Below, piece by piece: positions 3,218-59,862 of a stretch of DNA of 64,000 nt. The notes under the pieces are model-generated. The model did not search any database, was not told where the DNA came from, and saw only the letters and a program-made list of their open reading frames with translations. This stretch comes from Candidatus Berkelbacteria bacterium (lineage in GTDB: Bacteria > Patescibacteriota > UBA1384 > DTJR01). The translations under genes were made by a program, and so were the position numbers. The DNA is taken from NCBI GenBank assembly GCA_029865605.1, contig JAOUGE010000005.1:338-64337 (forward strand), in the 5' to 3' direction. The number at the start of each line of letters is the position of its first letter. Position 1 is the first letter of the stretch.

Positions 3218-3693
3218 AGCCAAAATTAAAAGGCCTTACTTTAATTGAACTTTTGATTGCGATTACTGTTTCTTTGATTTTAGTCGTTGCCAGTATCCCG
3301 ATCATTGTTCGCTCAACAGGGAGAGAAGCGCTCCAGGACCAGGCGCGGATCGTAGCTTCTTTTGTCGAAAGGGCAAGAAATTATGCTCTTCATCCCGAAA
3401 ATGAGAATGCCCTAAATTACCGGGTTTATAGGATGAGTGACAATCAGCGGCTAGAAATTGAAAGATGGACTCCGGATGGAACGGGTTATGAGGGCTTTGG
3501 CGAGGAGCTTAAGCTGCCGGACGGTTTTGAGTTTAATGATACTTTCACGTCAATTGTTTTTTACGTGCCCCGTGGCAATTATAATGGGACAAGTGCTACT
3601 CAAGTTGAGATCGAAAAAACTGGCATTAACGGGGGCAAAATCCCGGTTATTATTGAGAGTCCAGGCACAATAAGTATTGGAGAGATCGAATAA
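3214..3693 (+). CDS. Minor pilin / pseudopilin (GspH/FimT-like)
   Basis: N-terminus MKPKLKGLTLIELLIAITVSL. Start overlaps the stop of the upstream pilin gene. Confidence 0.7.
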   Translation: MKPKLKGLTLIELLIAITVSLILVVASIPIIVRSTGREALQDQARIVASFVERARNYALHPENENALNYRVYRMSDNQRLEIERWTPDGTGYEGFGEELKLPDGFEFNDTFTSIVFYVPRGNYNGTSATQVEIEKTGINGGKIPVIIESPGTISIGEIE

Positions 3694-5016: not shown

Positions 5017-6002
5017 AAATAAAATCATCAGCTCTTCTTATAACTTTAGCCCTGGGAATAGTTTTGTCAGGGATTATTATCGGGGTGGCGGCAACCTATT
5101 CTCAATTTGTGAAATCCTCGGCCCAAGCCAGAGAGGGCAAGAAGTCTTATCGGGCCGCTTTGAGTGGAATAGAAGACGGCCTTTTGAGATATAAATATTA
5201 CCTTGCTGGCACTCAAAACCCCGCCGACCTTTATGATCTTCCTGACGATCCGATTAGTTTGAACGCTGACGTTTCTTATAGGCTTTCCTTTAAGATGGAT
5301 TCTATTACCTACGGTAACGCCGAGTTTCCTGCTGGTTTTAAAATCGGAACGACAAGTAGCACTGCTGATATAGCTTCACGCCAAGCGGCTATAAGGCAAA
5401 ATGTTGATGATGTAATTGATATTGATCTGTCCTATTTTACTTATTTGCCAGAAGAGGAACAGCCCGAGTCTCTAACGATTCATTTTACCCCCCCTTGCGA
5501 TCCGGCATACTGCACCGCAGCGACCTATAGGCCCTTAAGTGGATATTTTACGGCGATGAACTATCGCCTTGTCGATGTTAAGGCGACAAACGAAGACCAA
5601 ATGATTTATGAGGAGACCGTTAATAGCTCCTCGCTAACCAGTATAGCCGTTCATGTTAATAGTCTTGTCGTCGAGTGCCGAAAAACTTCTAGAAATTGTC
5701 ATTTGAGGATTACGCCCCGGGTGGCTAAAAATTCCTTGGTGGGAGCCGGGAGACTCGAGGGTATGGGCGTGGCCTCTCAGGGCAAACGGGTTTTTCTGGC
5801 AATAGAAGCTAGAACATCTGGCGACCAGAATCCTCTTATTCCATCTACCGGCAAAAGGCCGGGGACAATTACCATTACTTCTGTCGGGGTGGCCAGAGGC
5901 GCTGAGCGGAAACTTGAGGCAAGGGTAGACTCTTCTTCGGGAAGATATATCGGTCTTTTTGACTACGGAATTTATTGCGGAGCTGAATGTATAGGGATTT
6001 GA
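5013..6002 (+). CDS. Pilus-associated hypothetical protein (PilX-like position)
   Basis: Single N-terminal TM segment (LLITLALGIVLSGIIIGVAA). Translationally coupled as the last gene of the pilin operon. No recognisable catalytic motif. Confidence 0.5.
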   Translation: MKIKSSALLITLALGIVLSGIIIGVAATYSQFVKSSAQAREGKKSYRAALSGIEDGLLRYKYYLAGTQNPADLYDLPDDPISLNADVSYRLSFKMDSITYGNAEFPAGFKIGTTSSTADIASRQAAIRQNVDDVIDIDLSYFTYLPEEEQPESLTIHFTPPCDPAYCTAATYRPLSGYFTAMNYRLVDVKATNEDQMIYEETVNSSSLTSIAVHVNSLVVECRKTSRNCHLRITPRVAKNSLVGAGRLEGMGVASQGKRVFLAIEARTSGDQNPLIPSTGKRPGTITITSVGVARGAERKLEARVDSSSGRYIGLFDYGIYCGAECIGI

Positions 6003-7464: not shown

Positions 7465-7541
7465 GGCAACGTAGCTCAGTTGGTTAGAGCGAGGGAATCA
7501 TAACCCCTAGGTCACAGGTTCGAATCCTGTCGTTGCCACCA
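7465..7541 (+). tRNA. tRNA with anticodon CAU (elongator Met or Ile2)
   Basis: GGCAACG/CGTTGCC acceptor stem, anticodon loop ATCATAA, T-arm ACAGG-TTCGAAT-CCTGT, encoded CCA. Confidence 0.85.
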
Positions 7542-7663
7542 GGTTGTTTTTTGGTGAAACGGCGGATTCGAAGGCCGCAGCGAGCGAAGGCGAGCGAGGC
7601 GGGGTCGATTGCCGCGCCAGCAGGTGCGGACAAGTGACCGAATCCTGTCGTTGCCACCAGGTT
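7542..7663 (+). repeat. tRNA-3'-flank structured element, copy B
   Basis: TGGTG-AAACGGC-GGATTCGAA is antisense of the CCA end and T-loop. This is followed by GGCCGCA, hairpin GCGAGC-GAAG-GCGAGC, GAGGCGGGGTCG, hairpin CCGCGCC-AGCA-GGTGCGG and GTGAC. It ends in a 25-nt exact repeat (7639-7663 = 7521-7545). Confidence 0.85.
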
Positions 7664-9515: not shown

Positions 9516-10777
9516 TAAGTGCTTCTGGCCTGATCCCAACAAGCGCGCCACAGCCTCGTAACTTCCGCCGTCTTATTGGGTGAATCTTGTTTGCCATCCC
9601 AAAAAGGACCGAGTGTCTTTAGAACCGGAGCATATTCGCAGTTGATTGCATTTTCTCCTAGCCTACATGTATTAGCACCGTCTGAGCCTGATTCTAAAAC
9701 ATAGTCGTATTGATCTCTAAGCCTTCCATTGTTCATCCAGGCAGCCATTTGGATTTTGATTTCTCTTCCACCTATGATTTCAGATTTAGTTATATCGATA
9801 TTAATGTCCTCGTACTTACCGCTTGACAATGTCTTTGTTTCTCCGGCAATTATATTATCGTTTTGAATAACCACAGCACAGACCCAGGCCCCGTGGTCTC
9901 TTTGGGTGTCAACTGTCTTGCCTCTATCTTTCGAATAAACAAGTCCACTTCTTCCTCTAGTCACGATTATTGAGCTGAGGAGGTTGGCAGGCAAGACTGT
10001 CACCGGCTCCGAAGAGTATCGAGGCTTGCCCTCTTCACCGGTAGCCGGTTCAGCTTCGGTGCTAGTTTGGCTTTTTGAGCCTGAAGTAACGGGTGCGCCA
10101 AGCTGACTGGAGCTTGGTGGACCGATTGCCGGTTGGGCGGCCGGAGCTGCTTGTTGGGCGGCGGCTTTGGCCTTTGCTTCTTCTTGCTCCTTTTTCCAGG
10201 TTTCGTAAGTCGTGTTTTTCTGGACTGGATTAATTGGTATGTCGTTAATGGCCAATACGTCATAATCAACGCTGTTGGGGCCAACGCAGGCCGGTTTCAG
10301 CGAAGATTGAATGACAGCGTATTTTTTTTGGTTGTCAGGCAAGGCATCAAAAGCCGCCTTGTCCTGAACGATTTGAATTTTCTGCCCGCCGGAGGTTGCT
10401 CTGGAAATGTAAGCATCTACTACCGTAGCGTTAGCAGCGCTGTTGCAGGGTTCATCTTCATTAATCTCCGGAACTTTGATTTGGGTGCATCTCCAATATT
10501 CTTCTCCCATCTTGTCATAATAAGCTTGATGGGCTCCTTTTTCGGTAATTCCTCCAGGGTAGTTATTGATTGCCACCTTGCCGCCGATGCATTTATCCAT
10601 ACTTAAACGGGTGGTTGAAGTGGCATTTTGCGAAGTGCTTGCCAGCAGGGGGTTTTGAGCATTCTGATAGGCCAAAAATCCCACCGTAAAAGCAAAGACC
10701 GTCGCACCGATCCCTGCCATTGCCCAGCTTGCCACACTAAAAAACCTTGGAGCTTCGCGTTTTTCGCCTTCCGCCAT
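9512..10777 (-). CDS. Hypothetical membrane-anchored protein with a low-complexity A/Q/P/S linker
   Basis: 421-aa ORF with an N-terminal TM segment (WAMAGIGATVFAFTVGFLAY). Its stop codon overlaps the ftsH stop (CTAG). Confidence 0.5.
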   Translation of the reverse strand: MAEGEKREAPRFFSVASWAMAGIGATVFAFTVGFLAYQNAQNPLLASTSQNATSTTRLSMDKCIGGKVAINNYPGGITEKGAHQAYYDKMGEEYWRCTQIKVPEINEDEPCNSAANATVVDAYISRATSGGQKIQIVQDKAAFDALPDNQKKYAVIQSSLKPACVGPNSVDYDVLAINDIPINPVQKNTTYETWKKEQEEAKAKAAAQQAAPAAQPAIGPPSSSQLGAPVTSGSKSQTSTEAEPATGEEGKPRYSSEPVTVLPANLLSSIIVTRGRSGLVYSKDRGKTVDTQRDHGAWVCAVVIQNDNIIAGETKTLSSGKYEDINIDITKSEIIGGREIKIQMAAWMNNGRLRDQYDYVLESGSDGANTCRLGENAINCEYAPVLKTLGPFWDGKQDSPNKTAEVTRLWRACWDQARSTY

Positions 10778-24156: not shown

Positions 24157-25038
24157 TTGACATTACATTCCGCGCCGCCCGCAGGGCGGCGCACCAAGGA
24201 GGAACCGCTTTATGATTTACCCCGCCGAGGCGGACGGCCGCCGGTCAACGACGAGTGGCGAGTGGAGTACTGCGACGGCCTATGCTGCGGCGTCTCGGCG
24301 ACATACGAGTTGCACTGGGCACTGACCGGTAACTGCTTCGATATCGAAGCCGAGATCGTCCGCCACGTCGCTCTAGCAGACAAGAGCGACGAGGGGTGGG
24401 TAACCGTTCTGACTCGTACCGACGAGATCAGAGCATTGGCGGACAGCTCCGTCGCGCAGCTTGAACACATCAACCCGCTGGCGCCGGTCGGCTCGCGCGT
24501 CATCCTTCCGTGGCCGCGGGTTGACTGCGTCATCGACCGCGACGGAACGACGTCGCCTTACGCTAACCCCTTCGTCGAAGTCACGGGGGAAGCCCTGGCA
24601 GGCCGCAAGAAGGAGCACTGCTTCTTCACCCATATCCGGCCTGACGATGATGGCTGGGTGGCCGCGGCGCTTCAGGGTCCCAAGGGAACGGGGATCGGCG
24701 TGCGCTCCAAGTACGACAAGCGGTTGCCCTTCTTCTCTGTCTGGTTCTCCCGCACGGGCAAGAAGGGCGTGGCGGCAATCGGCCTTGAGCCGGGTCCACT
24801 GCCGCTCGGCGCGGCAGAGACAGATCGACTCGAGATGAGGGCTGTCCTCGAGGGGGGAGAGGAGATGACGCGCATGACTGAACTCTACTTCCTCGATACT
24901 TCCGAGAGGATGACAACCTTCCTCGAGAGCAACGGGATGAGCGCTGGCTCGCTTCCCAAGCAGTTCGAGAAGATCGGCACCGACAAGAAGGACTGGCCGA
25001 CGCTCTGCAGGGCGGCTGGTATCAACGGCAAGCGCTAG
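24157..25038 (+). CDS. GC-rich hypothetical protein (islet 3); 5' end probably frameshifted
   Basis: 293-codon ORF whose third positions are mostly G/C. No credible in-frame start: the listed TTG is itself the TTGACA box. AAGGAGG (24196-24202) plus ATG 24212 lie in another frame that stops at 24325. Confidence 0.5.
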   Translation: MTLHSAPPAGRRTKEEPLYDLPRRGGRPPVNDEWRVEYCDGLCCGVSATYELHWALTGNCFDIEAEIVRHVALADKSDEGWVTVLTRTDEIRALADSSVAQLEHINPLAPVGSRVILPWPRVDCVIDRDGTTSPYANPFVEVTGEALAGRKKEHCFFTHIRPDDDGWVAAALQGPKGTGIGVRSKYDKRLPFFSVWFSRTGKKGVAAIGLEPGPLPLGAAETDRLEMRAVLEGGEEMTRMTELYFLDTSERMTTFLESNGMSAGSLPKQFEKIGTDKKDWPTLCRAAGINGKR

Positions 25039-28282: not shown

Positions 28283-28368
28283 GCCGAGGTGGTGGAATTG
28301 GTATACACGATAGCTTGAGGAGCTATGCTCGCAAGAGCGTGCAGGTTCGAGTCCTGTCCTCGGCACCA
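28283..28368 (+). tRNA. tRNA-Leu (GAG), class II
   Basis: GCCGAGG/CCTCGGC acceptor stem, anticodon loop CTTGAGGAG, variable arm, T-arm GCAGG-TTCGAGT-CCTGT, encoded CCA. Confidence 0.9.
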
Positions 28369-28523
28369 AGCAGAACTGCCCTTGTGGCAGTTTTTTGCTT
28401 GGTGCCCCGTGGACTCGAAGGCCGGACCTCGCCACGGCGGGGGTTCGAGGGGTGGCACCTGAGAAGGGTCGCGAGGCCCGCCAGCAGGCGGGAACTTGTG
28501 ACCGAGTCCTGTCCTCGGCACCA
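28369..28523 (+). repeat. tRNA-3'-flank structured element, copy D
   Basis: TGCTTGGTGCC-CCGT-GGACTCGAA is antisense of the CCA end and T-loop. It is followed by GGCCGGA, hairpin CCTCGC-CACG-GCGGGG, an extra segment TTCGAGGGGTGGCACC, GAGAAGGGTCG, hairpin CCCGCC-AGCA-GGCGGG and GTGAC. It ends in a 21-nt exact repeat (28503-28523 = 28348-28368). Confidence 0.85.
28375..28396 (+). terminator. Terminator-like hairpin between tRNA-Leu(GAG) and the antisense arm of element D
   Basis: ACTGCC-CTTG-TGGCAGT followed by TTTTTT. Confidence 0.65.
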
Positions 28524-28530
28524 CAAAGAT

Positions 28531-29030: not shown

Positions 29031-29106
29031 GCCGGGGTAGCTCAGTGGTTAGAGCACTGGTCTGAAAAACCAGGTGTCGACAGTTCGATTCTGTCCCCCG
29101 GCACCA
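29031..29106 (+). tRNA. tRNA-Phe (GAA)
   Basis: GCCGGGG/CCCCGGC acceptor stem, anticodon arm CTGGT-CTGAAAA-ACCAG, T-arm GACAG-TTCGATT-CTGTC, encoded CCA. Confidence 0.9.
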
Positions 29107-29240
29107 GGCGGAATTGCGAAGCAATTATTTGACTGGTGCGGCGAACCGAGAATCGAAGGCCGGAGCGCGACGGCGCGAGGCGGGGTCGAGCGCAAAATCA
29201 GCAGATTTTGACGGGTGACCGATTCTGTCCCCCGGCACCA
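29107..29240 (+). repeat. tRNA-3'-flank structured element, copy E
   Basis: Hairpin AATTGC-GAA-GCAATT, then CTGGTGC-GGCGAACCG-AGAATCGAA (antisense), GGCCGGA, hairpin GCGC-GACG-GCGC, GAGGCGGGGTCG, hairpin CAAAATC-AGCA-GATTTTG and GTGAC. It ends in a 21-nt exact repeat (29220-29240 = 29086-29106). Confidence 0.85.
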
Positions 29241-29443
29241 TCGCGTATGTCCTCATCTGCCAGAAAAGGTAGATGTGGAGACGCGATTTGACGGGGGCGG
29301 CAGGTCGATAACCTGAGAACCTGCCGACAAGAATCGAAACGCGCAGGCTCGACGGAGCCGAGCGGGGGTCGCGAGGCCCGCCAGCAGGCGGGAACTTGTG
29401 ACCGATTTCCTGCCTGCCGGCAGGCAGGTGTCCCTCTGCACCA
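29241..29443 (+). repeat. tRNA-3'-flank structured element, copy F (tandem, diverged, with a palindrome insert)
   Basis: Second unit directly after copy E: AGAATCGAA, hairpin GGCTC-GACG-GAGCC and GAGCGGGGGTCG. Hairpin 2 is identical to that of copy D. After GTGAC comes a Phe-like 3' end, GATT[CCTGCCTGCCGGCAGGCAGG palindrome]TGTCCCTCTGCACCA. Confidence 0.75.
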
Positions 29444-31162: not shown

Positions 31163-33031
31163 ATGCGCCCGAAACTGGTAGTAGTTCTTACTGTCTTTGC
31201 GGCCGCGCTAGCGGCCGCCACGGTTAACGCAGACGTCGTCGTGGCCATTCATGGCCACTCGAACTTCTCGGATGGTATGAAGCCCCTGCGCGAGACGTAC
31301 GTCGAAATGTGCTCGGGCGGGGCCGAGGTGGCGATCGTAACCGACCATACCGAGGTGATCGATCTGCCGCAGATTCCCGCTTCTTTTCTCAAGATGGAGT
31401 TTGCCAGGTACAGCCATTGGGAAATGGCTTCTGGCGCACTCCTGAAGGAGGCGGGACTGGCCAACTGGAAGGCGGCCTACCGGAGTCTCCAGACCGAGAG
31501 GGTGGTAGTGATCCCGGCAATGGAGGTCGGGCTAGTAGCCCGAAAGACGGATGCGTTGTGGGATCGCCGCTGCCACTTCCTGTTCATCGGCGGGTCGGTC
31601 GAGGATAACACCTACGATCAAGTGATGCAGTGGGCATCGGCCTATACCACCGAGAAAGGGGCGGTGGAATGTCTCAAGAAACTCACCGCCCTGGCACAGG
31701 AGCGCGGTGCGTTGCTTGTTGCTGCTCATCCAACTAACTCAGGCTGGCTGATAGACTCTAGCCTTCTTGAGTTGGTGAACGGGATTGAGGCAATGAATCA
31801 CGATCTCCTCCCTGGCGCCAGCATAAGAGGAGATACTCCCGAGAACCTCCTCAAGACAATGCCGGCGGTTCCTTCTTCCCCTGTGGTAACGGCGGGGCTG
31901 GACTGGCACGGTGTCATCGGCCAGTCGGGATTCAGGGACATTTTCCGGCGCTTCACTGTCGTCCTGACAGACGAGAGGACACCAACGGGAATTGTGGGCG
32001 CTCTTCAAGCGCGGCGAAGTTATGCCGCTCTCGGCGACGCTCGGATCACCCGCGGCAAGGAGCTCATCGGCGGCGAGGTCGGCTTCGACCAGCCGTTTGA
32101 GATGGGCTTCGAGGGGGTAAGGGGCAACAAGGCCTGGCTCGTCTGCCGCTCGAGCGATAGTGCCTACCGCGAGTTCAAGCCAGTCTCGCTTAAGAGCGGC
32201 ACTCTCAACATCAAGAACCTCGGGAAGGCCCTGGGGCCAGCGATGACGTCCGGCGGCTGGATCGTCGTTGCTGCCCCTGCTGGCACGCCCCAGATCATCA
32301 CCTCCGGCATCAAGGTCAATCCGGCCGAAGCCGGCGGTGGCGAACCCTCCTTCGTCTTCTACGACAAGCCGCTCGGCCCTGGACAGCTGGCTAGGCCCAA
32401 GAAACCTGGCTTCTGGGATCAGGTCCGAGGGGGGCTGGGAGATATCGTTGCGGGAGCGCTCTCCGGTGGGATGGATCTACCTGGGATGCGCATCCGCATT
32501 ACTCCGGGCAGTAGCATGCCGGGCGAAGGCATACCGCAAGTGCCAGCCGGGGGCACAGTACCCCAGGGCGGGCAGGCCGGGCTCGGTGAGGATTTCAGCA
32601 ACTGGCCGATGGAGTATAGCGGGGTGCACCCCACCGCGCGGGGACAAACCCGCGATCAGGTTGTAGCGACCCTCTACGTGAACCCAGAGGCGCAGCAGGG
32701 GCTGCTTGCGTTCCAACTCAACGATCTGCAGCAGCAGATCCCAGTTACGCTGCCCGGCGTGTTCGGTAACGGAGGCTTCTGGCGATCCTCTTGGCAGTCG
32801 AAGCTCCCGTCTCGTCCGAGGTTTATGCATCCCCAACCCAGTTCACTCGGGGGGGGTCCGCGACCTGCCTGCCTTGAGGGTTGGCATCTCGGTCACAGTT
32901 ACAGGGATAAGAACGACCCCGCTACATACCACTTCGATCTGACTCTTAGAGCCCTTGCCGATGTACCTGAGCGTGTGCCTGTCGCGGTAGGGTACTGGGA
33001 GATGCGCATGGAGCTTCTCCGCGTCCGCTAG
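31163..33031 (+). CDS. GC-rich secreted PHP-domain protein with a G/P-rich C-terminal region (islet 4)
   Basis: AAGGAGG lies 7 nt upstream of the ATG. Signal peptide MRPKLVVVLTVFAAALAAATVNA. PHP-type metal motifs HGHSNFSDG and IVTDH. Composition is far more GC-rich than the flanks. Confidence 0.7.
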   Translation: MRPKLVVVLTVFAAALAAATVNADVVVAIHGHSNFSDGMKPLRETYVEMCSGGAEVAIVTDHTEVIDLPQIPASFLKMEFARYSHWEMASGALLKEAGLANWKAAYRSLQTERVVVIPAMEVGLVARKTDALWDRRCHFLFIGGSVEDNTYDQVMQWASAYTTEKGAVECLKKLTALAQERGALLVAAHPTNSGWLIDSSLLELVNGIEAMNHDLLPGASIRGDTPENLLKTMPAVPSSPVVTAGLDWHGVIGQSGFRDIFRRFTVVLTDERTPTGIVGALQARRSYAALGDARITRGKELIGGEVGFDQPFEMGFEGVRGNKAWLVCRSSDSAYREFKPVSLKSGTLNIKNLGKALGPAMTSGGWIVVAAPAGTPQIITSGIKVNPAEAGGGEPSFVFYDKPLGPGQLARPKKPGFWDQVRGGLGDIVAGALSGGMDLPGMRIRITPGSSMPGEGIPQVPAGGTVPQGGQAGLGEDFSNWPMEYSGVHPTARGQTRDQVVATLYVNPEAQQGLLAFQLNDLQQQIPVTLPGVFGNGGFWRSSWQSKLPSRPRFMHPQPSSLGGGPRPACLEGWHLGHSYRDKNDPATYHFDLTLRALADVPERVPVAVGYWEMRMELLRVR

Positions 33032-34577: not shown

Positions 34578-34663
34578 GGGCGAGTGGTGGAATGGTATAC
34601 ACGTTGGACTTAAAATCCAATGGTCGCAAGACCATGTGGGTTCGAATCCCACCTCGCCCACCA
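34578..34663 (+). tRNA. tRNA-Leu (UAA), class II
   Basis: GGGCGAG/CTCGCCC acceptor stem, anticodon loop CTTAAAA, variable arm, T-arm GTGGG-TTCGAAT-CCCAC, encoded CCA. Confidence 0.9.
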
Positions 34664-34790
34664 GGTTGTTTTTTGGTGAACAGGGGGGATTCGAAAGCCG
34701 GACCAGCCCAGGGCTGGGAGACGGGGTCGCACAAAAATTCAGCAGAATTTTATGAGTGACCGAATCCCACCTCGCCCACCAGGTTGTTTT
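34664..34790 (+). repeat. tRNA-3'-flank structured element, copy G
   Basis: TGGTG-AACAGGG-GGGATTCGAA (antisense), then AGCCGGA, hairpin CCAGCC-CAG-GGCTGG, GAGACGGGGTCG, hairpin AAAATTC-AGCA-GAATTTT and GTGAC. It ends in a 30-nt exact repeat (34761-34790 = 34643-34672). Confidence 0.85.
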
Positions 34791-38238: not shown

Positions 38239-38245
38239 AGCGACA

Positions 38246-38268
38246 GGGCGCCAGCGGCGCTGGCGCCC
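38246..38268. terminator. GC hairpin between convergent alaS and the islet-5 ORF
   Basis: GGGCGCCAGC-GGC-GCTGGCGCCC perfect 10-bp stem with no clear T-run. Confidence 0.45.
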
Positions 38269-38293
38269 GTGGGGAGACAACGCAAGAATGGCT

Positions 38294-38503
38294 TCAGGCG
38301 GGGATAGGGCCTCGGTAGCCGGGGAAGATGCATCGAGAAGGCGGCCCGCCAAGAGCCCGAAGGGCCTCGTCATAGCGCTCAAGGTAACGCTCGTCTGCTC
38401 TTCGGAGCATTCTCTCGATCAGTGCTGGGTCATTACGGCGGCGCCTTCGGCGGCTGGTAGGCCCCTTCGTGGTCGTTGCCATTCCCATCACCTCCGAGAA
38501 CAT
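38294..38503 (-). CDS. GC-rich small Arg-rich hypothetical protein (islet 5)
   Basis: 69-aa ORF. GGAGGTGA precedes the internal ATGs, so the true start may be M6 or M8. Contains an RRRRRR tract and then a helical ALIERMLRRADERYLERYDEALRAL. Confidence 0.4.
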   Translation of the reverse strand: MFSEVMGMATTTKGPTSRRRRRRNDPALIERMLRRADERYLERYDEALRALGGPPSRCIFPGYRGPIPA

Positions 38504-38524
38504 TATATCAGATGATGAGAGTGC

Positions 38525-43894: not shown

Positions 43895-44013
43895 GTGGTG
43901 GGAATTTACAATAACTTTACCCTTTACCCTTTTAACTTTTAACTGCATGCAGAGTGATTTGACAAATGAGCTCTAGTCGTTAGAATTCAATTTGCTAACC
44001 ATATTTTTAAATT

Positions 44014-46307: not shown

Positions 46308-48147
46308 TATCAAAGATTATTTGGGCGAGCACGTCTTTTTTGATGATCATGTTGATGGCTCGGAGGTTTTTACCAGAAGCCGTGGGCGGTCCGCCGTTTG
46401 GGGCGTGCTTTTTGCCTTCGTTTTTTTTGTTGCCATCGCCGTAGCGCTGTTTCGCCTTCAGGTGCAGGAGGGCTTCGTTAATTTGAGCTTGGCCGAGGGC
46501 AACCGGCTTAAAAATGTTCCCTTGGCCGCGCCGCGGGGCGTAATTTATGATGATCAAGGCGAGCCGCTCGTAACAAATGAGCCGATTTATCAGCTGGTAG
46601 TTCAGGCCAGCCGGGTTAAGGATATTGAGAAAATAGATCCTAAGGCCTTTGAGCTTACCCAAGTAACAAAAGAAGGGGTGATTGATAAAGTCAGGGACGA
46701 CCGCCAGCGGGTGGGTTTGGTCGTGCTTCGAGATAAAATTGCAAGAGATGATGCCCTGCTTTTAAAGTCCCGCCTTGTGTCCTATAGCCAGTTTGAAGTA
46801 GTCGAGAGCTATGTCCGCCATTACACCGATCCTGCTTTAAGCCATATTTTAGGCTATATTGGCAAACTCTCTCAAGACGAGGCGACTGGCAATCCGACCG
46901 CCGTGGTCAACCGCTTTATTGGCAAGTCGGGCCTTGAAAAAAAGTATGATGAGTATTTACAGGGAATGCCGGGGACAAGAAAGGCGGAAGTTGACGCATC
47001 GGGGCGGGTGATGAGATTGCTGTCCACCACCGAGCCGCAAAAAGGCGATGATCTTTACACCTCTATTGATAGTGAACTGCAGATTTATCTGACCTCTATT
47101 TTAAAATCCAAGGCGGAAGGGCTTCAAACCAAAGCGGCGGCGGTAGTGATGGACCCACGCGACGGCTCGGTCAAGGCCCTTGCCAGTATTCCCTATTATG
47201 ATAATTCCAAAATGTCCTTTGGCTTAACGCAGGAGGAATACGATAAAATCGCCAAGGATGAAAATCTACCCCTTTTTGATCGGGCAATTGCCGGCACCTA
47301 TCCGCCCGGTTCCTCAATCAAGCCTTTTATCGCCTCAGCCGGCTTGACCGAGGGGGTAGTTAACGACTCAATTGCTTTTGACACGCCAAGCGAGATTGTC
47401 ATCGGCGATTGGCACTTTCCTGACTGGAAAGATCACGGCACAACCGACATCAAGCGGGCTATCGCTGAATCAAATAATATCTTTTTCTTTGCTGTCGGTG
47501 GGGGCTGGGGGCCGATTAAACAAGGGTTGGGAGTGGAGCGGATAAAAACCGGCCTTGAAAAGTTTTCGTATGGGTCGAAAACCGGCATTGATTTGCCCGG
47601 CGAGGCGGAGGGATTTATCCCGACGCCGGAGTGGAAAAAGAAAAAGAAGAAAGAAAGCTGGTATATCGGCGATACCTATAATCTTTCAATTGGCCAAGGC
47701 GATCTTTCGGTCACGCCGCTTCAGCTTGCCAACGCTACTGCCACCATTGCTAACGGAGGCAAGCTGTTTAAGCCCCATTTTGCTAAAAAAATTATTGAGG
47801 ATAATAAAGAAGTTAAGGAGTTTACTGATACGGATTATCTTGTGGCAAAAGATGTTTTTCCGGCCGGTCATCTTAAGACGGTCAGAGAGGGGATGAGGAT
47901 GACTATCACCCAAGGATCGGCCTATAGTGTTTTTGGTGATGGGTTTCCGATCAAAATTGCCGGAAAAACCGGAACCGCTCAGTTCGGTAATAAAGAAAAG
48001 ACCCACGCTTGGTTCACCTCGTTCGCGCCCTATGACGACCCGCAAATTGTGGTTACGATTTTGATTGAGGGGGGCGGCGAGGGCTACCAAACTGCCGCCC
48101 CCCTCGCCAAACAGGTCTACCAGTGGTGGGCAGGACACAGGACGTGA
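46288..48147 (+). CDS. mrdA: Penicillin-binding protein 2 (transpeptidase)
   Basis: PGSSIKP (SxxK), SNN, and KTGTAQ motifs. Confidence 0.9.
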   Translation: MAKPRFSIKDYLGEHVFFDDHVDGSEVFTRSRGRSAVWGVLFAFVFFVAIAVALFRLQVQEGFVNLSLAEGNRLKNVPLAAPRGVIYDDQGEPLVTNEPIYQLVVQASRVKDIEKIDPKAFELTQVTKEGVIDKVRDDRQRVGLVVLRDKIARDDALLLKSRLVSYSQFEVVESYVRHYTDPALSHILGYIGKLSQDEATGNPTAVVNRFIGKSGLEKKYDEYLQGMPGTRKAEVDASGRVMRLLSTTEPQKGDDLYTSIDSELQIYLTSILKSKAEGLQTKAAAVVMDPRDGSVKALASIPYYDNSKMSFGLTQEEYDKIAKDENLPLFDRAIAGTYPPGSSIKPFIASAGLTEGVVNDSIAFDTPSEIVIGDWHFPDWKDHGTTDIKRAIAESNNIFFFAVGGGWGPIKQGLGVERIKTGLEKFSYGSKTGIDLPGEAEGFIPTPEWKKKKKKESWYIGDTYNLSIGQGDLSVTPLQLANATATIANGGKLFKPHFAKKIIEDNKEVKEFTDTDYLVAKDVFPAGHLKTVREGMRMTITQGSAYSVFGDGFPIKIAGKTGTAQFGNKEKTHAWFTSFAPYDDPQIVVTILIEGGGEGYQTAAPLAKQVYQWWAGHRT

Positions 48148-48335
48148 GCGGGTCCTGTCGGGCACCGTTTTCTCTCGGCCCGCGTCGGAATTCCCAGCGA
48201 GAATTCCGCGCTTAGCCTCGCCCTCACTCTTCCGCCTTCGGCGTAAACCATGCCCGTTCGGCACGCCTGCCGGAGGCAGGGCTCCGGATGACCTCGATAA
48301 AAGGTGCCCGCCACCCGCTGTTCGACAGGAAGGTT
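48148..48335 (+). other. GC-rich structured intergenic region R1 (candidate ncRNA or remnant; strand unknown)
   Basis: Long-range helix CCTGTCG-GGCACC (48154-48166) pairs with GGTGCC...CGACAGG (48303-48329), enclosing several hairpins. One is CGGAATTC-CCAGCGA-GAATTCCG; another is CCTGCC-GGA-GGCAGG. Shares collinear 8-9-mers with R2. Confidence 0.4.
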
Positions 48336-48475
48336 ACAGTGAAATCTGGGAAATAAAAAATTGAATTTTCCGATAAATTTCTCTTATTTCGTGTTATCGC
48401 TTTTTATTTTTAGATAAAGAATATGTATAATTTGTCTAGCCGTCATCACCGGCGCTTGAAAGGAGGGAGCAGCTC

Positions 48476-49099
48476 GTGACAGATGAGATCGAGCGACAGT
48501 CTGCCGGCTTAAGAACGGCGCTGGCAGCACTTGTCTTCGTTGATCCGTCAGAGCTTGCGCCTGGGGGGCTGCACCCCGGGCTTGAGTTCCTCACCTGGAC
48601 CTCCGGCACGCCGGGCGAGGTTCTCCGGCAGATGATCAACGAAGGTGATGTTGACGACAAGACGGCCAAGCTTTTCCTCGACCTGATGATCTCGGTCTGG
48701 TCTGCCGGCTACAGCTCTTCCCCCGGGCTTGTTGTGAGAGGGGGGAATATTGTACCGGCAGAGTTGAGAGAGGGCGTTGCGAGTTACTGTGTGGATCACT
48801 TCAGCACTCTCCTCTCCCAGCTCATCGAGGACTTGCCGGAGCGTGTGGATGCGGCGACGAAGAGACGCGCTCGCACTCGTTCCCTCTCATTGCTTGCAGG
48901 TGAAGCGCCCCCCACGACTGACTGGCGGATGACAAAGGCTGGGAGTGCGAAGTGTCTCTTGATCTTGGGCCGGGTGGCTCGCCTCCGGCGCCATGCCGGG
49001 GTTTGGTTCGAGATCGAGTTAACAGGTCTGGGGGAACTTCTGGGTGTAGCCCAGCAGTCTCTCCCAGAGCGTTCCGTGGCCAGCCCGCCTGACGAATGA
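48476..49099 (+). CDS. GC-rich hypothetical protein (islet 6)
   Basis: 207-codon ORF with a GTG start 7 nt after AAAGGAGGGAG. It is preceded by an AT-rich, host-like region containing TATAAT (48426-48431). Confidence 0.55.
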   Translation: MTDEIERQSAGLRTALAALVFVDPSELAPGGLHPGLEFLTWTSGTPGEVLRQMINEGDVDDKTAKLFLDLMISVWSAGYSSSPGLVVRGGNIVPAELREGVASYCVDHFSTLLSQLIEDLPERVDAATKRRARTRSLSLLAGEAPPTTDWRMTKAGSAKCLLILGRVARLRRHAGVWFEIELTGLGELLGVAQQSLPERSVASPPDE

Positions 49100-49435
49100 C
49101 GGGCTGGCCACCACTTTTTAAAAGTATGGGGGCTCTTAAAAGCATCGCCAAAGTCAGCTCCTTCCCCAAGAGTCAACCTTGCGCTTCGAAAGAAGCTGGA
49201 TTGAATATCTGCTTTATTTATAAACAGGATGAATGTTCAGAGTGTCTTTCAGAAAGCAAGGTTGAACTTTTGAGCGAGCTAGGGGGTTGGTTGTTAGGAT
49301 AGGGGGAACGCTTCGCAAGTAGGTCCCCTTATCCTAACGTGGGTCGGCAGGCTTTAGCCTGCCCTAATTTATGGATTTTTTAAAAATCGGTCCCGTGCGT
49401 TTGCTCGGATTAGGGAAACGGGTTAAGCTATAAGT

Positions 49436-50338
49436 ATGAGTCCTAATATTTCGTCAAAGAAAGTAATCTCTACTTCTTTGCTGGTTGATATTCTTGATGT
49501 TTTACTAAACGGCATTGTCGCCCTTATTACGGGAAGCTCGGTTATGCTGGCTGAAGCCCTGCAGGGGGTGGCAGACTTGCTGACAGTGATTTTTTTGTAT
49601 ATCGGAGTCAAGCGATCGGCCAGAAGGCCGAATAAATATTATAATTTTGGATATGGCCGGGAGCTATATTTTTGGGTAATGTGCGCGGCTGTAGCGATGT
49701 TTTCAATAACGGCGACTCTATCTGTCTATTCGGGCATTCATAAAATCCTCAATCCCGCAGCTTTGGAGAACACTTTTTGGGCGTACCTTGTGCTTACTAT
49801 CGGCGTCGCGTCAAATGCCTATGCTCTCTCCTTGAGTGTGCGGAAAATTCGTCAGACGCCGATTAAAGCGAGCGTCTTAAAAAGTTTTATCAGTTCAAAC
49901 TTAATTGAAGTAAAGACGGCTTCGCTGACGGATATGATGGGTACGACCGCGGCGGTTTTCGGAATCATATCGCTTATAGTTTACGCGATAACAGGCGATC
50001 CTTTTTTTGATGGGCTCGGCGCTGTCATTATCGGCATAACCATCGCAACCTTTGCTATCTTTTTGATAATTGATGTGAAGGATTTAATCATTGGCAAGAG
50101 CGCTTCGCCAGATAAGATTGAATTGATTAGAAAAACCGCCCACGAAAACCCCTCCGTCGAGCGGGTTTCAAAAATTATGAGCATGCATTTTGGCTCGGAG
50201 GACATTTACGTTAATTTAAACCTTGAGCTTGATGACAAGCTTAAAACCCCGGAAATCGAAAAACTTAACGAAAAAATAGAAAGAGATATCAAGCAAGCCG
50301 TTCCCGAGGTTGACCTAGTCCACATCGAGCTTGGGTGA
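49436..50338 (+). CDS. Cation diffusion facilitator family transporter
   Basis: Six TM helices plus a C-terminal cytoplasmic domain, the typical CDF layout. Confidence 0.7.
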   Translation: MSPNISSKKVISTSLLVDILDVLLNGIVALITGSSVMLAEALQGVADLLTVIFLYIGVKRSARRPNKYYNFGYGRELYFWVMCAAVAMFSITATLSVYSGIHKILNPAALENTFWAYLVLTIGVASNAYALSLSVRKIRQTPIKASVLKSFISSNLIEVKTASLTDMMGTTAAVFGIISLIVYAITGDPFFDGLGAVIIGITIATFAIFLIIDVKDLIIGKSASPDKIELIRKTAHENPSVERVSKIMSMHFGSEDIYVNLNLELDDKLKTPEIEKLNEKIERDIKQAVPEVDLVHIELG

Positions 50339-50466
50339 TTTTATGCTCTTAGGAAAACGAGCTAAGCGGGCCAAACTATTGATCTTTCCTCCCCTTTTTG
50401 CTACTCTTGACATTACCCCCAAAAGACGATTAGATATCTAAAGTAAAAAATAAGGGGGGATTTATT

Positions 50467-50931
50467 ATGGCCGTAAAATCGATCAATTTAACCAAGGCAG
50501 GTAAGGAGAAACTCGAATCAGAACTTGAAGAGCTAAAGAAAATCAAACGTCCCCAAGTGATTGAAAGAATCAAACGGGCTAAGGATTTCGGCGATTTGAG
50601 TGAAAATGCCGAGTACGAAGACGCTCGCAACGAGCAGTCTTTTATTGAAGGAAGAATTCAAGAAATTGAATATATTTTGAAGTATGCCCAAATTGTTGAA
50701 AACGGCAAGAGTAGGGGTGTGGTTGCTCTCGGTTCAAAGGTTACGGTGAGCTTGGGTGGTGACAAAGTGGGATATGAGCTTGTTGGCTCAACCGAAGCCG
50801 ACCCCTCCTCGGGTAAAATTTCAAGCGAATCGCCTATTGGCTCGGCGATTTTGGGGAAGAAGGTAGGGGAAATGGTTGTCGCCAAAACCCCCAGCGGCTC
50901 CCTTAAAGTCAAAGTCCTGAAGATTCAGTAA
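50467..50931 (+). CDS. greA: Transcription elongation factor GreA
   Basis: LTKAGKEKLESELEELK...RAKDFGDLSENAEYEDAR is the canonical GreA N-terminus. Confidence 0.9.
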   Translation: MAVKSINLTKAGKEKLESELEELKKIKRPQVIERIKRAKDFGDLSENAEYEDARNEQSFIEGRIQEIEYILKYAQIVENGKSRGVVALGSKVTVSLGGDKVGYELVGSTEADPSSGKISSESPIGSAILGKKVGEMVVAKTPSGSLKVKVLKIQ

Positions 50932-51150
50932 TTAGTTCTCGCCGAGAGCTAGCCTCTTCTCTCGGGAACGGCTTGCCCGCTCCAGCGGCGGTCTACGCCT
51001 CTGGGGAGAATTCTCGCGTTCCACCCGCTCGAAGCACTGAAATTTTCCCCAAATATGGGGAAACCGAGCAATTTCAGCTCCGGATGTTCCTCAAGAAGGA
51101 CTATCTCTCGGCTAAGACAGCCCGGCAGAAGGTGCCAGCTACCCGCCCTT
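50932..51150 (+). other. GC-elevated structured intergenic region R2 between greA and serS (candidate ncRNA or leader; strand unknown)
   Basis: GCCGAGAG (50941) can pair with either CTCTCGG (50960) or CTCTCGGC (51105). Nested hairpin CTGAAATT[TTCCCC-AAATAT-GGGGAA]...AATTTCAG. A hairpin loop TTCCACC lies at 51019-51025. Confidence 0.4.
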
Positions 51151-51238
51151 ACCCTTTACCCCCTTCACTTTTAACTGAATTCCTTGTAATCGAGGAATTT
51201 TAAGGGTATATTTGAGCTGAAATCAAGGAAGGAGATAA

Positions 51239-52540
51239 ATGTTGGATTTGGAGTTTATTAGAACGAACATTAAGCAGGTAAAAGGCGCGATTGAGAAAAA
51301 GGATCTCAAGGTTGATTTGGATGAATTTTTGGCTTTGGACGACAAAAGGCGGGGGTTGATTCAGGAAATCGACAGCCTGCGCGAAAGGCAGAATGCTTTC
51401 AACAAGAAGGTAGTCGGCTTGTCCAAAGAAGAAAAAGATAAGTCGATGGCGGATATGAAAGTGCTCTCGAATGATTTGAGTAGCTTGGAAACAGAACTTT
51501 CTAAAATTGAGCAAAAGTGGAACGATCTCTATCTTCTAATTCCCAATATTCCCTCTGACGACACGCCGGTTGGGGGCGAAAACGCCAATCTTGAAATTGA
51601 AAAATGGGAAACGCCGAAAAGGTTTGGTTTTTCCCCCAAGAGCCATATTGAGCTTGGGCGCGATTTGGATCTGATTGATATCGAAAAGGGCGTACGAACT
51701 TCGGGCTTTCGGGGGTATTATTTGAAGAACGAGGCAGCCCAGCTTCATTTGGCTGTTTTGCAGTATGCTTTTAGCAAGATTATCTCCAAGGGTTTTAAAC
51801 CGATGATAACGCCGGCGATTGTCCGAGAATTTGTTTTGATTGGCAGCGGCCATTTTCCTTTCGGCAAAGATGACGTCTATGAGCTAGCTAATACCGGCAA
51901 GAATGAAAGGGGGGAGAAGATCGGCGAGTCGCTTTATCTTGCTGGCACCTCTGAGCCGGCACTTTTGGCTTATTTTGCCGACTCGGTTTTGGAGGAAAGT
52001 GAATTGCCGGTTAAAGTCTGCGCCCTCTCGCCTTGCTATCGTAATGAAGTCGGCTCTTATGGCAAGGATACCAAGGGCCTTTACCGTATCCATGAGTTTA
52101 TGAAAGTAGAGCAGGCGGTTTTGTGCAAGGATGATGTGGGTGAATCTGACCGGTGGCTTAATGAGATGAGGCATTACTCGCAGGAGATCCTCAGAGATCT
52201 AGAGCTGCCCCATCGGGTTGTTCAGATTGCAACTGAGGATATGGGCGCCGGTAAGCGGAAGATGTATGATATTGAAACCTGGATGCCTTCGCGCGAAGCC
52301 TACGGCGAGACCCACTCTGACTCCGACTTGACTGACTGGCAGCCAAGGCGCTTGAACATTAAATACAAAACCAAGGGCGGCGAGAAAAACTATGTGTACG
52401 CTCTTAACAACACGGTTATCGCCAGCCCGAGAATTTTAATTGCCATTTTGGAGAATTATCAGAACGAAGATGGCTCTGTCAGCGTGCCTAAGGTCCTAGT
52501 GCCACTTTGCGGTTTTGACAAGATTGAGGCTAAAAGATGA
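51239..52540 (+). CDS. serS: Serine--tRNA ligase
   Basis: N-terminal coiled-coil arm and class II motifs (FRGYYLKNE..., GTSE, YRIHEF). Confidence 0.95.
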   Translation: MLDLEFIRTNIKQVKGAIEKKDLKVDLDEFLALDDKRRGLIQEIDSLRERQNAFNKKVVGLSKEEKDKSMADMKVLSNDLSSLETELSKIEQKWNDLYLLIPNIPSDDTPVGGENANLEIEKWETPKRFGFSPKSHIELGRDLDLIDIEKGVRTSGFRGYYLKNEAAQLHLAVLQYAFSKIISKGFKPMITPAIVREFVLIGSGHFPFGKDDVYELANTGKNERGEKIGESLYLAGTSEPALLAYFADSVLEESELPVKVCALSPCYRNEVGSYGKDTKGLYRIHEFMKVEQAVLCKDDVGESDRWLNEMRHYSQEILRDLELPHRVVQIATEDMGAGKRKMYDIETWMPSREAYGETHSDSDLTDWQPRRLNIKYKTKGGEKNYVYALNNTVIASPRILIAILENYQNEDGSVSVPKVLVPLCGFDKIEAKR

Positions 52541-59819: not shown

Positions 59820-59862
59820 TTTCTCCTAGCTTTTAACTTTTCACTTTCATCTTTTAACTTAC

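Follow-up and report, generated by a model that had tools for sequence, protein, structure and literature searches.

The criteria for bacterial miniature inverted-repeat transposable elements (MITEs) have been reviewed together with the MITE-like repeats ERIC, Correia, RUP, BOX, and bcr1 (PMC3184786). ERIC, or IRU, is a repeat of 127 bp in Enterobacteriaceae, Correia elements of about 104 to 157 bp are found in Neisseria, RUP and BOX belong to Streptococcus pneumoniae, and bcr1 belongs to the Bacillus cereus group (PMC3184786). Here we describe a so far undescribed element family with two members, R1 and R2, in a 64,000-nt stretch of DNA from a Candidatus Berkelbacteria bacterium (the window), which is part of the 68-kb metagenome contig k141_1346744 (ENA ERZ27296335). 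R1 follows mrdA and R2 follows greA. The family is real and structured: its members are homologous, share a fold whose helices covary, are dispersed and found in both orientations, and have been gained and lost between relatives.

The MITE-like repeats are noncoding sequences of 100 to 200 nt whose ends pair into a long stem; they are intergenic, often placed at gene 3' ends and co-transcribed there, can face either way, and vary between close strains. The element resembles them in these respects, and copies behind genes would likewise be co-transcribed. BOX is modular, as are the R2-type copies, and the branched, cruciform-like fold of bcr1 is a further likeness. Unlike these repeats, the element (i) shows no sequence similarity to them, has no Rfam match, and has no demonstrable target duplications, (ii) conserves an internal four-way-junction core and one hairpin loop rather than its termini, and (iii) is present in highly divergent copies within one genome, in a host with a reduced genome of the Candidate Phyla Radiation (CPR) and no transposase in view.

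The REP, BIME, and REPIN sequences, which are mobilized by RAYT transposases, are also GC-rich, palindromic, and extragenic and lie behind stop codons, and the roles proposed for them, mRNA 3'-end protection and termination, are akin to the one proposed below. However, REPs are single hairpins of 20 to 40 nt (doublets in REPINs), whereas the element has 155 to 175 nt and four helices, and no RAYT gene was seen. Orphan structured noncoding RNA (ncRNA) classes such as raiA, OLE, HEARO, and ROOL, present in Rfam, were found by comparative genomics; none of these classes matches the element. Like the element, they have a multihelix covarying fold, conserved junction and loop nucleotides, a narrow range, and no assigned function; in contrast to the multicopy and variably placed element, they are mostly single copy with conserved neighborhoods or tied to a mobile-element protein. 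CPR (Patescibacteria) genomes are small, with little known mobile DNA or regulatory RNA, and the element would be among the few dispersed structured repeats described in them.

Homology, copies, and fold of the element

The nearest GTDB species representatives to the window host are Berkelbacteria, with 62 to 65% SerS identity. Relatives share the gene order mreB-mreC-mreD-mrdA-greA-serS-..-secA with short spacers. The window has an extra block between mrdA and greA, made up of R1, a GC-rich orphan open reading frame (ORF) at 48476-49099, and a cation-efflux gene, and R2 is placed between greA and the serS promoter (TTGTAA-17-TATATT, 51184-51212). The mrdA stop codon TGA occupies 48145-48147 and R1 begins at the very next base; the greA stop codon TAA occupies 50929-50931 and R2 begins 10 nt later. 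An earlier note on this DNA had connected the two regions by four collinear motifs, all of which were found in both:

48170 (R1) and 50957 (R2): TTCTCTCGG
48199 (R1) and 51006 (R2): GAGAATTC
48282 (R1) and 51078 (R2): CTCCGGATG
48301 (R1) and 51129 (R2): AAGGTGCC, followed by ACCCGC at 48313 and 51141

Three of the four are unique to R1 and R2 within the window, the exception being CTCCGGATG, with one extra copy at 3470. A chain of four collinear 8-mers arose in 3 of 5,000 dinucleotide-shuffled pairs. In a comparison with shuffled controls, of the kind that the note had proposed, the local alignment of R1 and R2 scored 29 against 15.1 ± 2.8, and none of 1,000 shuffles scored as high. The blastn E value between R1 and R2 was about 2, nhmmer with either region as the query did not recover the other, and both programs returned self-matches only over the window and 80 loci. 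Among real 200-nt tiles of the window, R2 was the best Smith-Waterman partner of R1, but marginally, with other GC-rich tiles close. The fold z-scores of R1 and R2 were modest (-1.9 to -3.0) and alike on both strands. From the window alone, the relation is real but borderline; it becomes solid because of the copies found in relatives.

Contigs with GreA homologs were the main source of comparison loci, which carry L-numbers below and many of which are metagenome contigs. Directly after greA, L087 (GreA 73% identical) has an evident R1 homolog (..CCTGTCTGGCAACATTTTCTCTCGGCCCGCGTCGAAATTCTCTGCGAGAATTTCGCGCTTAACCTCGG..) with a hairpin GGAATTC/GAATTCC that shows a compensatory G-C to A-U change, and in L089 an inverted R1-type copy follows greA. 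A metagenome scan with a pattern for the block conserved in the R1, L087, and L089 copies, GCTTANNCTCGN{0,3}CTCRCTCTYCC, gave 16 loci, which is about the chance expectation. Those that proved real are L095 and L105 (by nhmmer) and L103 (by covariance model), and the pattern is too strict to catch divergent members like L132. The L095 and L105 copies have the full length of 155 nt and a fold z of -6.4. From these two we built a first covariance model, which was then iterated; its structure was set by hand from the L105 fold, the RNAalifold result for a raw MAFFT alignment that included truncated copies having been poor. The first model scored L105 at 194 bits, L095 at 181 bits, L103 at 164 bits, L089 (cut by the contig end) at 97 bits, R1 at 65.5 bits (E 1e-16), and the two L087 copies, one at each contig end, at 43 and 30 bits. 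The second model adds L132, L133, and L134 and the third adds L136, all of which represent one locus (56 bits with the second model) where, as in R1, the copy directly follows the mrdA stop codon; GreA of this lineage is 71% identical to that of the window. The copies found with the covariance models are as follows:

Window 48148-48320: R1
L105 3042-3198: one copy
L095 429-582, minus strand: one copy
L103 2687-2843, minus strand: one copy
L089 10512-10617, minus strand: one copy
L087 1-104 and 5825-5908: two copies
L132 9651-9812: one locus, shared with L133, L134, and L136
L086, L088, L131, L085, and L130: orthologs of R2

The search for further copies in relatives thus added at least eight loci in Berkelbacteria-like contigs. 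R1 scored 65.5, 105.8, and 100.5 bits in the model scans (E 1e-16 to 6e-24). A filter-free scan with an R2 ortholog in the model returned two significant hits in the 64 kb, namely, R1 (100.5 bits) and R2 (42.2 bits, E 4.5e-9). With an R1-type-only model, R2 reached 6.7 bits, with E 0.025 for its own intergenic region alone, and its ortholog in L086, L088, and L131, from an 83%-identical lineage, reached 18.2 bits (E 0.026 in 338 kb and 2e-5 locally). In addition, R2 aligns over 90 collinear bases with the L087 copy called L087A, a strong R1-type hit (Smith-Waterman z = 6.1). In other bacterial loci totaling 1.29 Mb, no hit was significant, the best unrelated one having E 0.69. Two scans of viral contigs gave 0 and 19 hits, none of the 19 being upheld by the covariance model, and GenBank phages and PLSDB plasmids contained no match to the element. 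A search of the window with Rfam 15 at gathering thresholds found tRNAs only; 47900-51400 at E<=10 gave only noise of 13 to 18 bits, L105 and L095 gave nothing at gathering thresholds, and the best-folding copy (L105 3000-3240) had no match at E<=10. The Rfam scan suggested in the earlier note hence assigned R1 and R2 to no family.

The element is about 155 to 175 nt long and, in most copies, richer in G+C than the DNA around it. Its fold is a four-way junction of helices P1 to P4. (i) P1 is a long closing helix formed by both element ends and comprises GCGGGU/ACCCGC, the conserved internal loop CCUGUC, and then AGAUAAC/GUUAUCU. This last part is AGAUAAC/GUUAUCU in L105, L095, L103, and L089 and GGGCACC/GGUGCCC in R1, a compensatory swap, and P1 of L132 is wholly different in sequence (GGAUAUCUUUGCUUU/AAAGCAAAACAUCC). 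(ii) P2 carries a loop, C[CAGC]G, that is nearly constant across the family (the exception is CUGC in L087), and its stem is hypervariable: CGGAAUUC, CGAAAUUC, CGAUUU, CAAUUUU, CCCCGA, CGUUUUGU, GCCCGC, and GCCUGC, each with its complement. Both sides have changed in 9 of the 11 P2 pairs over seven to eight copies, and 96% of the cells are paired. (iii) P3 consists of a conserved single-stranded block of the CUCGGCUCGC type, a short outer helix around a variable hairpin, and then AACCAGGC. (iv) P4, a small hairpin, precedes a conserved UGCGRAUG-like block (R = A or G).

In an alignment of nine sequences fitted to the model, 93.3% of the pair cells are paired, compensatory (both-side) changes occur in 31 of 50 pairs, and the covariation score is 0.363 against 0.129 ± 0.015 for shuffles, none of 500 of which reached it. 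When partners were slid by 1 to 3 columns, 36 to 46% of cells were paired. The complete replacements of the P1 and P2 helices are visible by eye in the raw sequences. In L132 and L086 the P1 sequences are entirely different and the internal core is conserved. The near-identical copies of L105, L095, L103, and L089 differ mainly in the P2 stem and the P3 apex, and these differences are compensated. Conservation is slightly higher in unpaired than in paired columns. G.U cells (22) exceed A.C cells (9) when the element's own strand is read, an excess that hints at an RNA read in that direction. No reading frame is conserved in any of the six frames across the copies, and an alignment of minus-frame translations had no match among 5.8 billion proteins. 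The covariance models, the further copies in relatives, and the strongly covarying helices agree with the proposal of the earlier note that R1 and R2 are homologous, structured, noncoding members of one family.

Anatomy of R1 and R2

R1 is an intact R1-type element with the following parts:

48148..48318, plus strand: R1, four-way junction (covariance-model hits, fold)
48148..48178, plus strand: P1 5' strand, with GCGGGU, internal loop CCUGUC, GGGCACC, and GUUUUCUCUCGG
48182..48211, plus strand: P2, GCG-U-CGGAAUUC / C[CAGC]G A / GAAUUCCG-CGC
48232..48263, plus strand: P3, CGCC-UUC-GGCG, then conserved AAACCAUGCCCGUUCGGCA (AACCAGGCCCGCUCGCC in other copies)
48265..48282, plus strand: R1-specific extra hairpin, GCCUGCC-GGA-GGCAGGC
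48282-48290, plus strand: conserved UCCGGAUG block after the extra hairpin
48290-48318, plus strand: P1 3' strand, partner of 48148..48178 (..AAAAGGUGCCCGCCACCCGC)
48137..48142 and 48325-48330: direct repeat ACAGGA around R1 (p about 0.09, not significant alone)

P3 was placed by manual alignment with L105, L095, L089, and L087A, since the model misaligns this stretch because of the insertion that follows. Of the pairings that the earlier note had drawn for R1, the helix GGGCACC/GGTGCCC is real and covaries, as does the 11-bp hairpin with loop CCAGCGA. The proposed CCTGTCG/CGACAGG pairing lacks conservation: CCUGUC forms a conserved internal loop, and other copies have no 3' partner for it. 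The CCTGCC-GGA-GGCAGG hairpin is present in R1 and absent from every other copy and is thus an R1-specific insertion. The ACAGGA pair may be a target duplication, with R1 inserted into the last codons of mrdA; removal of R1 would restore an MrdA end ..HRK.., like the ..NRK* of L087.

R2 is a divergent (R2-type) member with the same architecture:

50941..51114, plus strand: R2 (covariance model)
50941..50952, plus strand: 5' arm GCCGAGAGCUAG of the closing helix, paired with CUAUCUCUCGGC at 51101-51112
50975..50993, plus strand: P2, GCCCGC / UCCAGCG / GCGGUC, with the loop as in R1
51003..51036, plus strand: 27-nt module GGGAGAAUUCUCGCGUUCCACCCGCUCGAAGCA (alignments of R2 with L087A and with the L089 insert "S")
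51037..51086, plus strand: P3, outer helix CUGAAAUU/AAUUUCAG around CCCC-AAAUAU-GGGG and AAACCGAGC, then conserved CUCCGGAUG
51118..51146, plus strand: orphan fragment CAGCCCGGCAGAAGGUGCCAGCUACCCGC, matching an R1-type closing-helix 3' strand and not covered by the model alignment of R2

The long-range helix described for R2 (GCCGAGAGCTAG/CTATCTCTCGGC) is kept in the ortholog L086 with one compensatory change, U-A to C-G. The model aligns L086 end to end: GCAGAGAGCC/GGCUCUUGGC replaces P1 (GCCGAGAGCUAG/CUAUCUCUCGGC in R2) and is continued by CCCUUCUCUCGG/..AAGAAGGG, after which come P2, P3, and a CGGAUG block. P2 of L086 is GCCUGC/GCAGGC, compensatory with respect to R2, with the same UCCAGCG loop, and P3 has CUCCGC..GGUGGAG where R2 has CCCC..GGGG. 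The module GGGAGAAUUCUCGCGUUCCACCCGCUCGAAGCA is common to R2, L087A, and, inverted, the "S" insert, and is absent from L086.

With these assignments, two of the four shared motifs, TTCTCTCGG and CTCCGGATG, occupy homologous positions and the other two do not. GAGAATTC is the 3' strand of P2 in R1, whereas in R2 it belongs to the 27-nt module after P2. Similarly, AAGGTGCC..ACCCGC is the closing-helix 3' strand in R1, whereas in R2 it falls 3' of the element and lacks a 5' partner. Since it is unpaired and falls in a 28-nt block missing from the orthologs L086, L088, and L131, it looks like a leftover of an R1-type 3' end; L087 and L089 carry R1-type copies in this same greA spacer. The R2 locus therefore combines a copy from a divergent subfamily with what looks like a piece of an R1-type copy, so that the caveat of a shared remnant origin, raised in the earlier note, was partly right for R2, whereas R1 is intact.

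The L089 insert "S" is a GC-rich, R2-like stretch of 170 nt (about 9756-9922) between mrdA and greA that is absent from L092. It has the direct repeat GTCGG on both sides, its minus strand is R2-like without hairpin P2, and the covariance models did not detect it.

Dispersal, turnover, and possible origins

Copies are present or absent between relatives with 83 to 92% identical greA, as the following pairs illustrate:

L087 and L090, greA 92% identical in nucleotides: a copy follows greA in L087, whereas the spacer of L090, 78 nt long, contains none
L089 and L092, greA 88%: L089 carries two inverted inserts, an R1-type copy behind greA and an R2-like one ahead of it, both of which are missing from L092
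Window and L129, greA 85%: L129 lacks R2 and retains only the 5' arm of the outer helix

The R1 site after mrdA is empty in L087, L092, L005, and L006 and filled in L132. Two copies occur in the window and two on the 5.9-kb contig L087, and one metagenome has two copies, 94% identical, in different contexts. Five contigs (L002, L085, L087 at both ends, L089, and L130) break off within the element, which is expected for a repeat or a polymorphic site, and the element accounts for such assembly breaks and may serve as a marker for strain-level genome dynamics. At six of the nine loci examined, the copy lies in sense orientation 0 to 47 nt behind a stop codon; L087A lies upstream of mreB, its own upstream neighbor being cut off by the contig end.

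The genes downstream are unrelated (orphan ORF, serS, mreB, nucleotide kinase, membrane protein), and the next gene is convergent in L095 and L089. We rejected a cis-regulatory leader or riboswitch because the downstream genes have no coherent function. In the window, greA and mrdA have no canonical terminator besides the elements, whereas one is present in relatives that lack the element. A single terminator-like site occurs at the two elements, the hairpin 50932-50952 at the 5' edge of R2, and such sites are no commoner than in shuffles. No U-run follows P1 in R1, R2, L105, or L095, so these copies do not have the form of intrinsic terminators. Family, structure, and covariation thus uphold the ncRNA-family reading of the earlier note, but a dispersed element that is found in both orientations and is gained and lost is unlike a fixed small RNA gene or cis-regulator.

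The element ends pair over about 25 to 30 bp, imperfectly, and are identical among R1, L105, L095, and L103 (GCGGGTCCTGTC.. / ..CCACCCGC). Direct repeats of 5 to 6 bp lie 3 to 9 nt off the ends of R1 (ACAGGA), L105 (AAAGTT), and L095 (AGAGG), with p = 0.09 to 0.15 each; none were found at L103, L132, or R2. In two copies the flanks are mutually complementary and lengthen P1 by 8 to 9 bp: L095 (583-625 and 405-428; ACCUCUCUC/GAGAGAGGGU, p about 0.006) and L103 (2844-2860 and 2660-2686; AAUCAAAC/GUUUGAUU, then a U-run, p about 0.02). The two pairs of flanks are unrelated in sequence and may reflect insertion into preexisting hairpins or selection for a longer closing helix.

A conserved junction core and one conserved loop, combined with freely covarying stems, indicate selection on a folded single strand, most simply RNA. 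R1 and R2 are diverged copies of a noncoding element family of a Berkelbacteria-like CPR lineage. The reading that we favor, in which this dispersed element is evolutionarily mobile, would be co-transcribed as a structured 3' untranslated region (UTR), and has its fold as the selected feature, has in our judgment about an even chance of being right. Copies would land in intergenic DNA, mostly a few bases behind a stop codon and in sense orientation, where read-through would turn them into structured 3' UTRs. Selection would preserve the fold because the element needs it for its propagation; alternatively or additionally, the fold could serve the upstream mRNA at its 3' end, by blocking exonucleases or by standing in for a terminator. 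Transcription, the role of the RNA, and the origin of new copies are inferred.

Several points limit or weigh against such a mobile 3'-UTR element. (i) The covariation alignments, being fitted to the model, lean towards its structure, and the copy list, about 11 loci in all, mixes full and contig-truncated copies. (ii) The fold z-scores are equal on both strands, so the structure may be one of single-stranded DNA. (iii) A uniform 3'-UTR role is at odds with the L103 copy, which lies between divergent genes and upstream of the likely promoter of the downstream gene, and with the L089 copies (R1-type and "S"), which are antisense to their neighboring genes; no promoter or terminator consensus tied to the elements was found. 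(iv) A classical transposon is not what is expected from copies as divergent within one genome as R1 and R2 or L087A and L087B, from flanking direct repeats that are offset from the ends and individually not significant (p 0.09 to 0.7), from P1 sequences in L132 and the R2-type copies that are unrelated while the internal core is kept, the termini not being the conserved part, or from the lack of a transposase in the 64-kb window and the fetched flanks.

It is possible, though not probable, that the copies are independently functional structured RNAs (a ribonucleoprotein or protein-binding RNA, a self-cleaving or processing ribozyme, or a trans-acting small RNA) duplicated as paralogs, with incidental mobility and with the activity of the RNA itself under selection. 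The conservation of C[CAGC]G, CUCGGCUCGC, AACCAGGC..GCUCGC.UGCG, and CCUGUC at a distance (GreA about 71 to 73%) at which neutral intergenic DNA is unalignable would fit such RNAs, as would the full compensation of stem changes up to the exchange of the whole P1 in L132, the compensated P2 and P3 differences among the four near-identical copies, the preference for G.U over A.C, and the slightly greater conservation of unpaired columns. However, the element has no promoter or terminator of its own and is dispensable, since L129, L090, and L092 have lost it and the 1.6 to 18 kb sampled show no sign of a replacement. Moreover, R2-type copies lose modules (P2 in "S" and the 27-nt module in L086), no protein gene or conserved neighborhood is associated, and no Rfam ribozyme or other RNA matches at E<=10. 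We considered tmRNA, SRP, 6S, RNase P, and Y RNA owing to the closing helix and the smpB neighbor in L103 and rejected them on copy number, dispensability, missing diagnostic motifs, and the negative Rfam scans. As a candidate new functional RNA fold, the element might also, quite tentatively, represent a new catalytic or protein-binding RNA class specific to this CPR lineage that copies itself to new intergenic sites. Possibilities include a self-processing module that cuts or caps polycistronic transcripts and an RNA partner of a mobility or defense protein; the four-way-junction core would then be the active part, with P1 and the P2 stem free to vary.

We regard as unlikely a purely selfish remnant of a MITE-type DNA transposon, in which P1 would represent terminal inverted repeats (TIRs) for a transposase encoded elsewhere, the internal hairpins would be features of the DNA, and the RNA fold would have no role. 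Much about the element does match the features listed for bacterial MITEs (PMC3184786): its 155 to 175 nt, without a conserved ORF, compare with less than 200 to 400 bp; it is multicopy and polymorphic at the filled and empty sites of L087/L090, L089/L092, and the window/L129; its ends pair over about 25 to 30 bp; and both orientations and contig breaks inside it occur. Other small TIR-bounded inserts also exist in these genomes, such as L087 5133-5299, whose ends GGTCTGTCAGCGGATAC are similar to the R1-type 5' end GGGTCCTGTCAGATAAC. Against such a remnant stand the lack of demonstrable target-site duplications and of a transposase, termini that vary across subfamilies around a conserved unpaired core, the covariation of internal hairpins around constant loops, unexpected under a DNA-level TIR model, and the strand-asymmetric G.U excess. 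Spread as a retroelement is less likely, as no reverse transcriptase lies nearby and group II introns are reported to be absent from the Patescibacteria/CPR phylum (PMC13011429).

Chance likeness of two GC-rich 3' regions, or decay of coding fragments, is ruled out for R1 and very unlikely for R2: blastn and nhmmer leave the two unconnected and window tiles come close, but R1 scores 100 to 106 bits with the family models and 65.5 bits with a model from other samples' copies only, the R2 ortholog scores 18.2 bits with a model free of R2-type sequence, R2 matches L087A, and neither a conserved open frame nor protein homologs exist. Specific coding readings were also rejected. The differences in AAGGTGCCnGCnACCCGC affect third codon positions, but on the plus strand the motif comes immediately after a stop codon; the minus-strand frames of R1 and R2 part at once; an AUG-led short frame (M..K..HP) mirrors the conserved nucleotides and changes residues wherever P1 covaries; and C-terminal extensions of MrdA or GreA are excluded by protein ends that match those of relatives.

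Other GC-rich elements, ORFs, and repeats

The G+C content of the window is 46.5%, with many islands of about 60%, and GC-rich islands in such moderately AT-rich genomes can flag structured elements missed by sequence-similarity searches. Several tRNA genes of the window (7465-7660, 28283-28525, 29031-29425, and 34578-34790) are followed, about 118 nt beyond their 3' end, by a second copy of that same end, made up of the T-arm half, the acceptor strand, and CCA. The GC-rich inserts of about 90 nt between the two start with a degenerate inverted copy of the tRNA end and contain a hairpin with a CAGCAG loop, reminiscent of the P2 loop C[CAGC]G; the R-family model touched them once and weakly (11.6 bits, E 0.28).

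Upstream of greA in L087, the 165-nt insert at 5133-5299, absent from L090 (greA 92% identical), is bounded by inverted repeats TCTGTCGGCGGATGC / GTATCCGCTGACAGA that resemble the R1-type 5' end. The GTDB Berkelbacteria genome L006 has another GC-rich element of about 250 nt (9620-9880) between the greA terminator and the serS promoter, with a palindrome CCTGCCTGCCGGCAGGCAGG and a terminator-like hairpin as its 3' end; it has no Rfam match and no R-family model hit, and Rfam found nothing on L005 and L006. A 286-nt intergenic region of the window with 63% G+C (38239-38524), between alaS and an AP-endonuclease gene, also has no R-family model hit.

Orphan ORFs with 61 to 63% G+C lie at 48476-49099 (ORF207), 31163-33031, and 24157-25038. 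ORF207 has a good Shine-Dalgarno sequence, a -10 box, and one homolog among 5.8 billion proteins (58% identity, in L087); a link to the element was rejected because this homolog has no adjacent copy. Pfam and PHROG gave no hit for ORF207 or the 622-aa ORF; for the 293-aa ORF, PHROG likewise gave none and Pfam only a subthreshold match to DUF4432. Finally, a periodic repeat of the ACCCTTTAC / AACTTTA type is present in the window (43912-43938, 51144-51170, and 59834-59860) and in L006 (8960-9000 and 9880-9930), just upstream of sigma-70-like promoters (mreB, serS, and others), and may be an upstream promoter element of the lineage.

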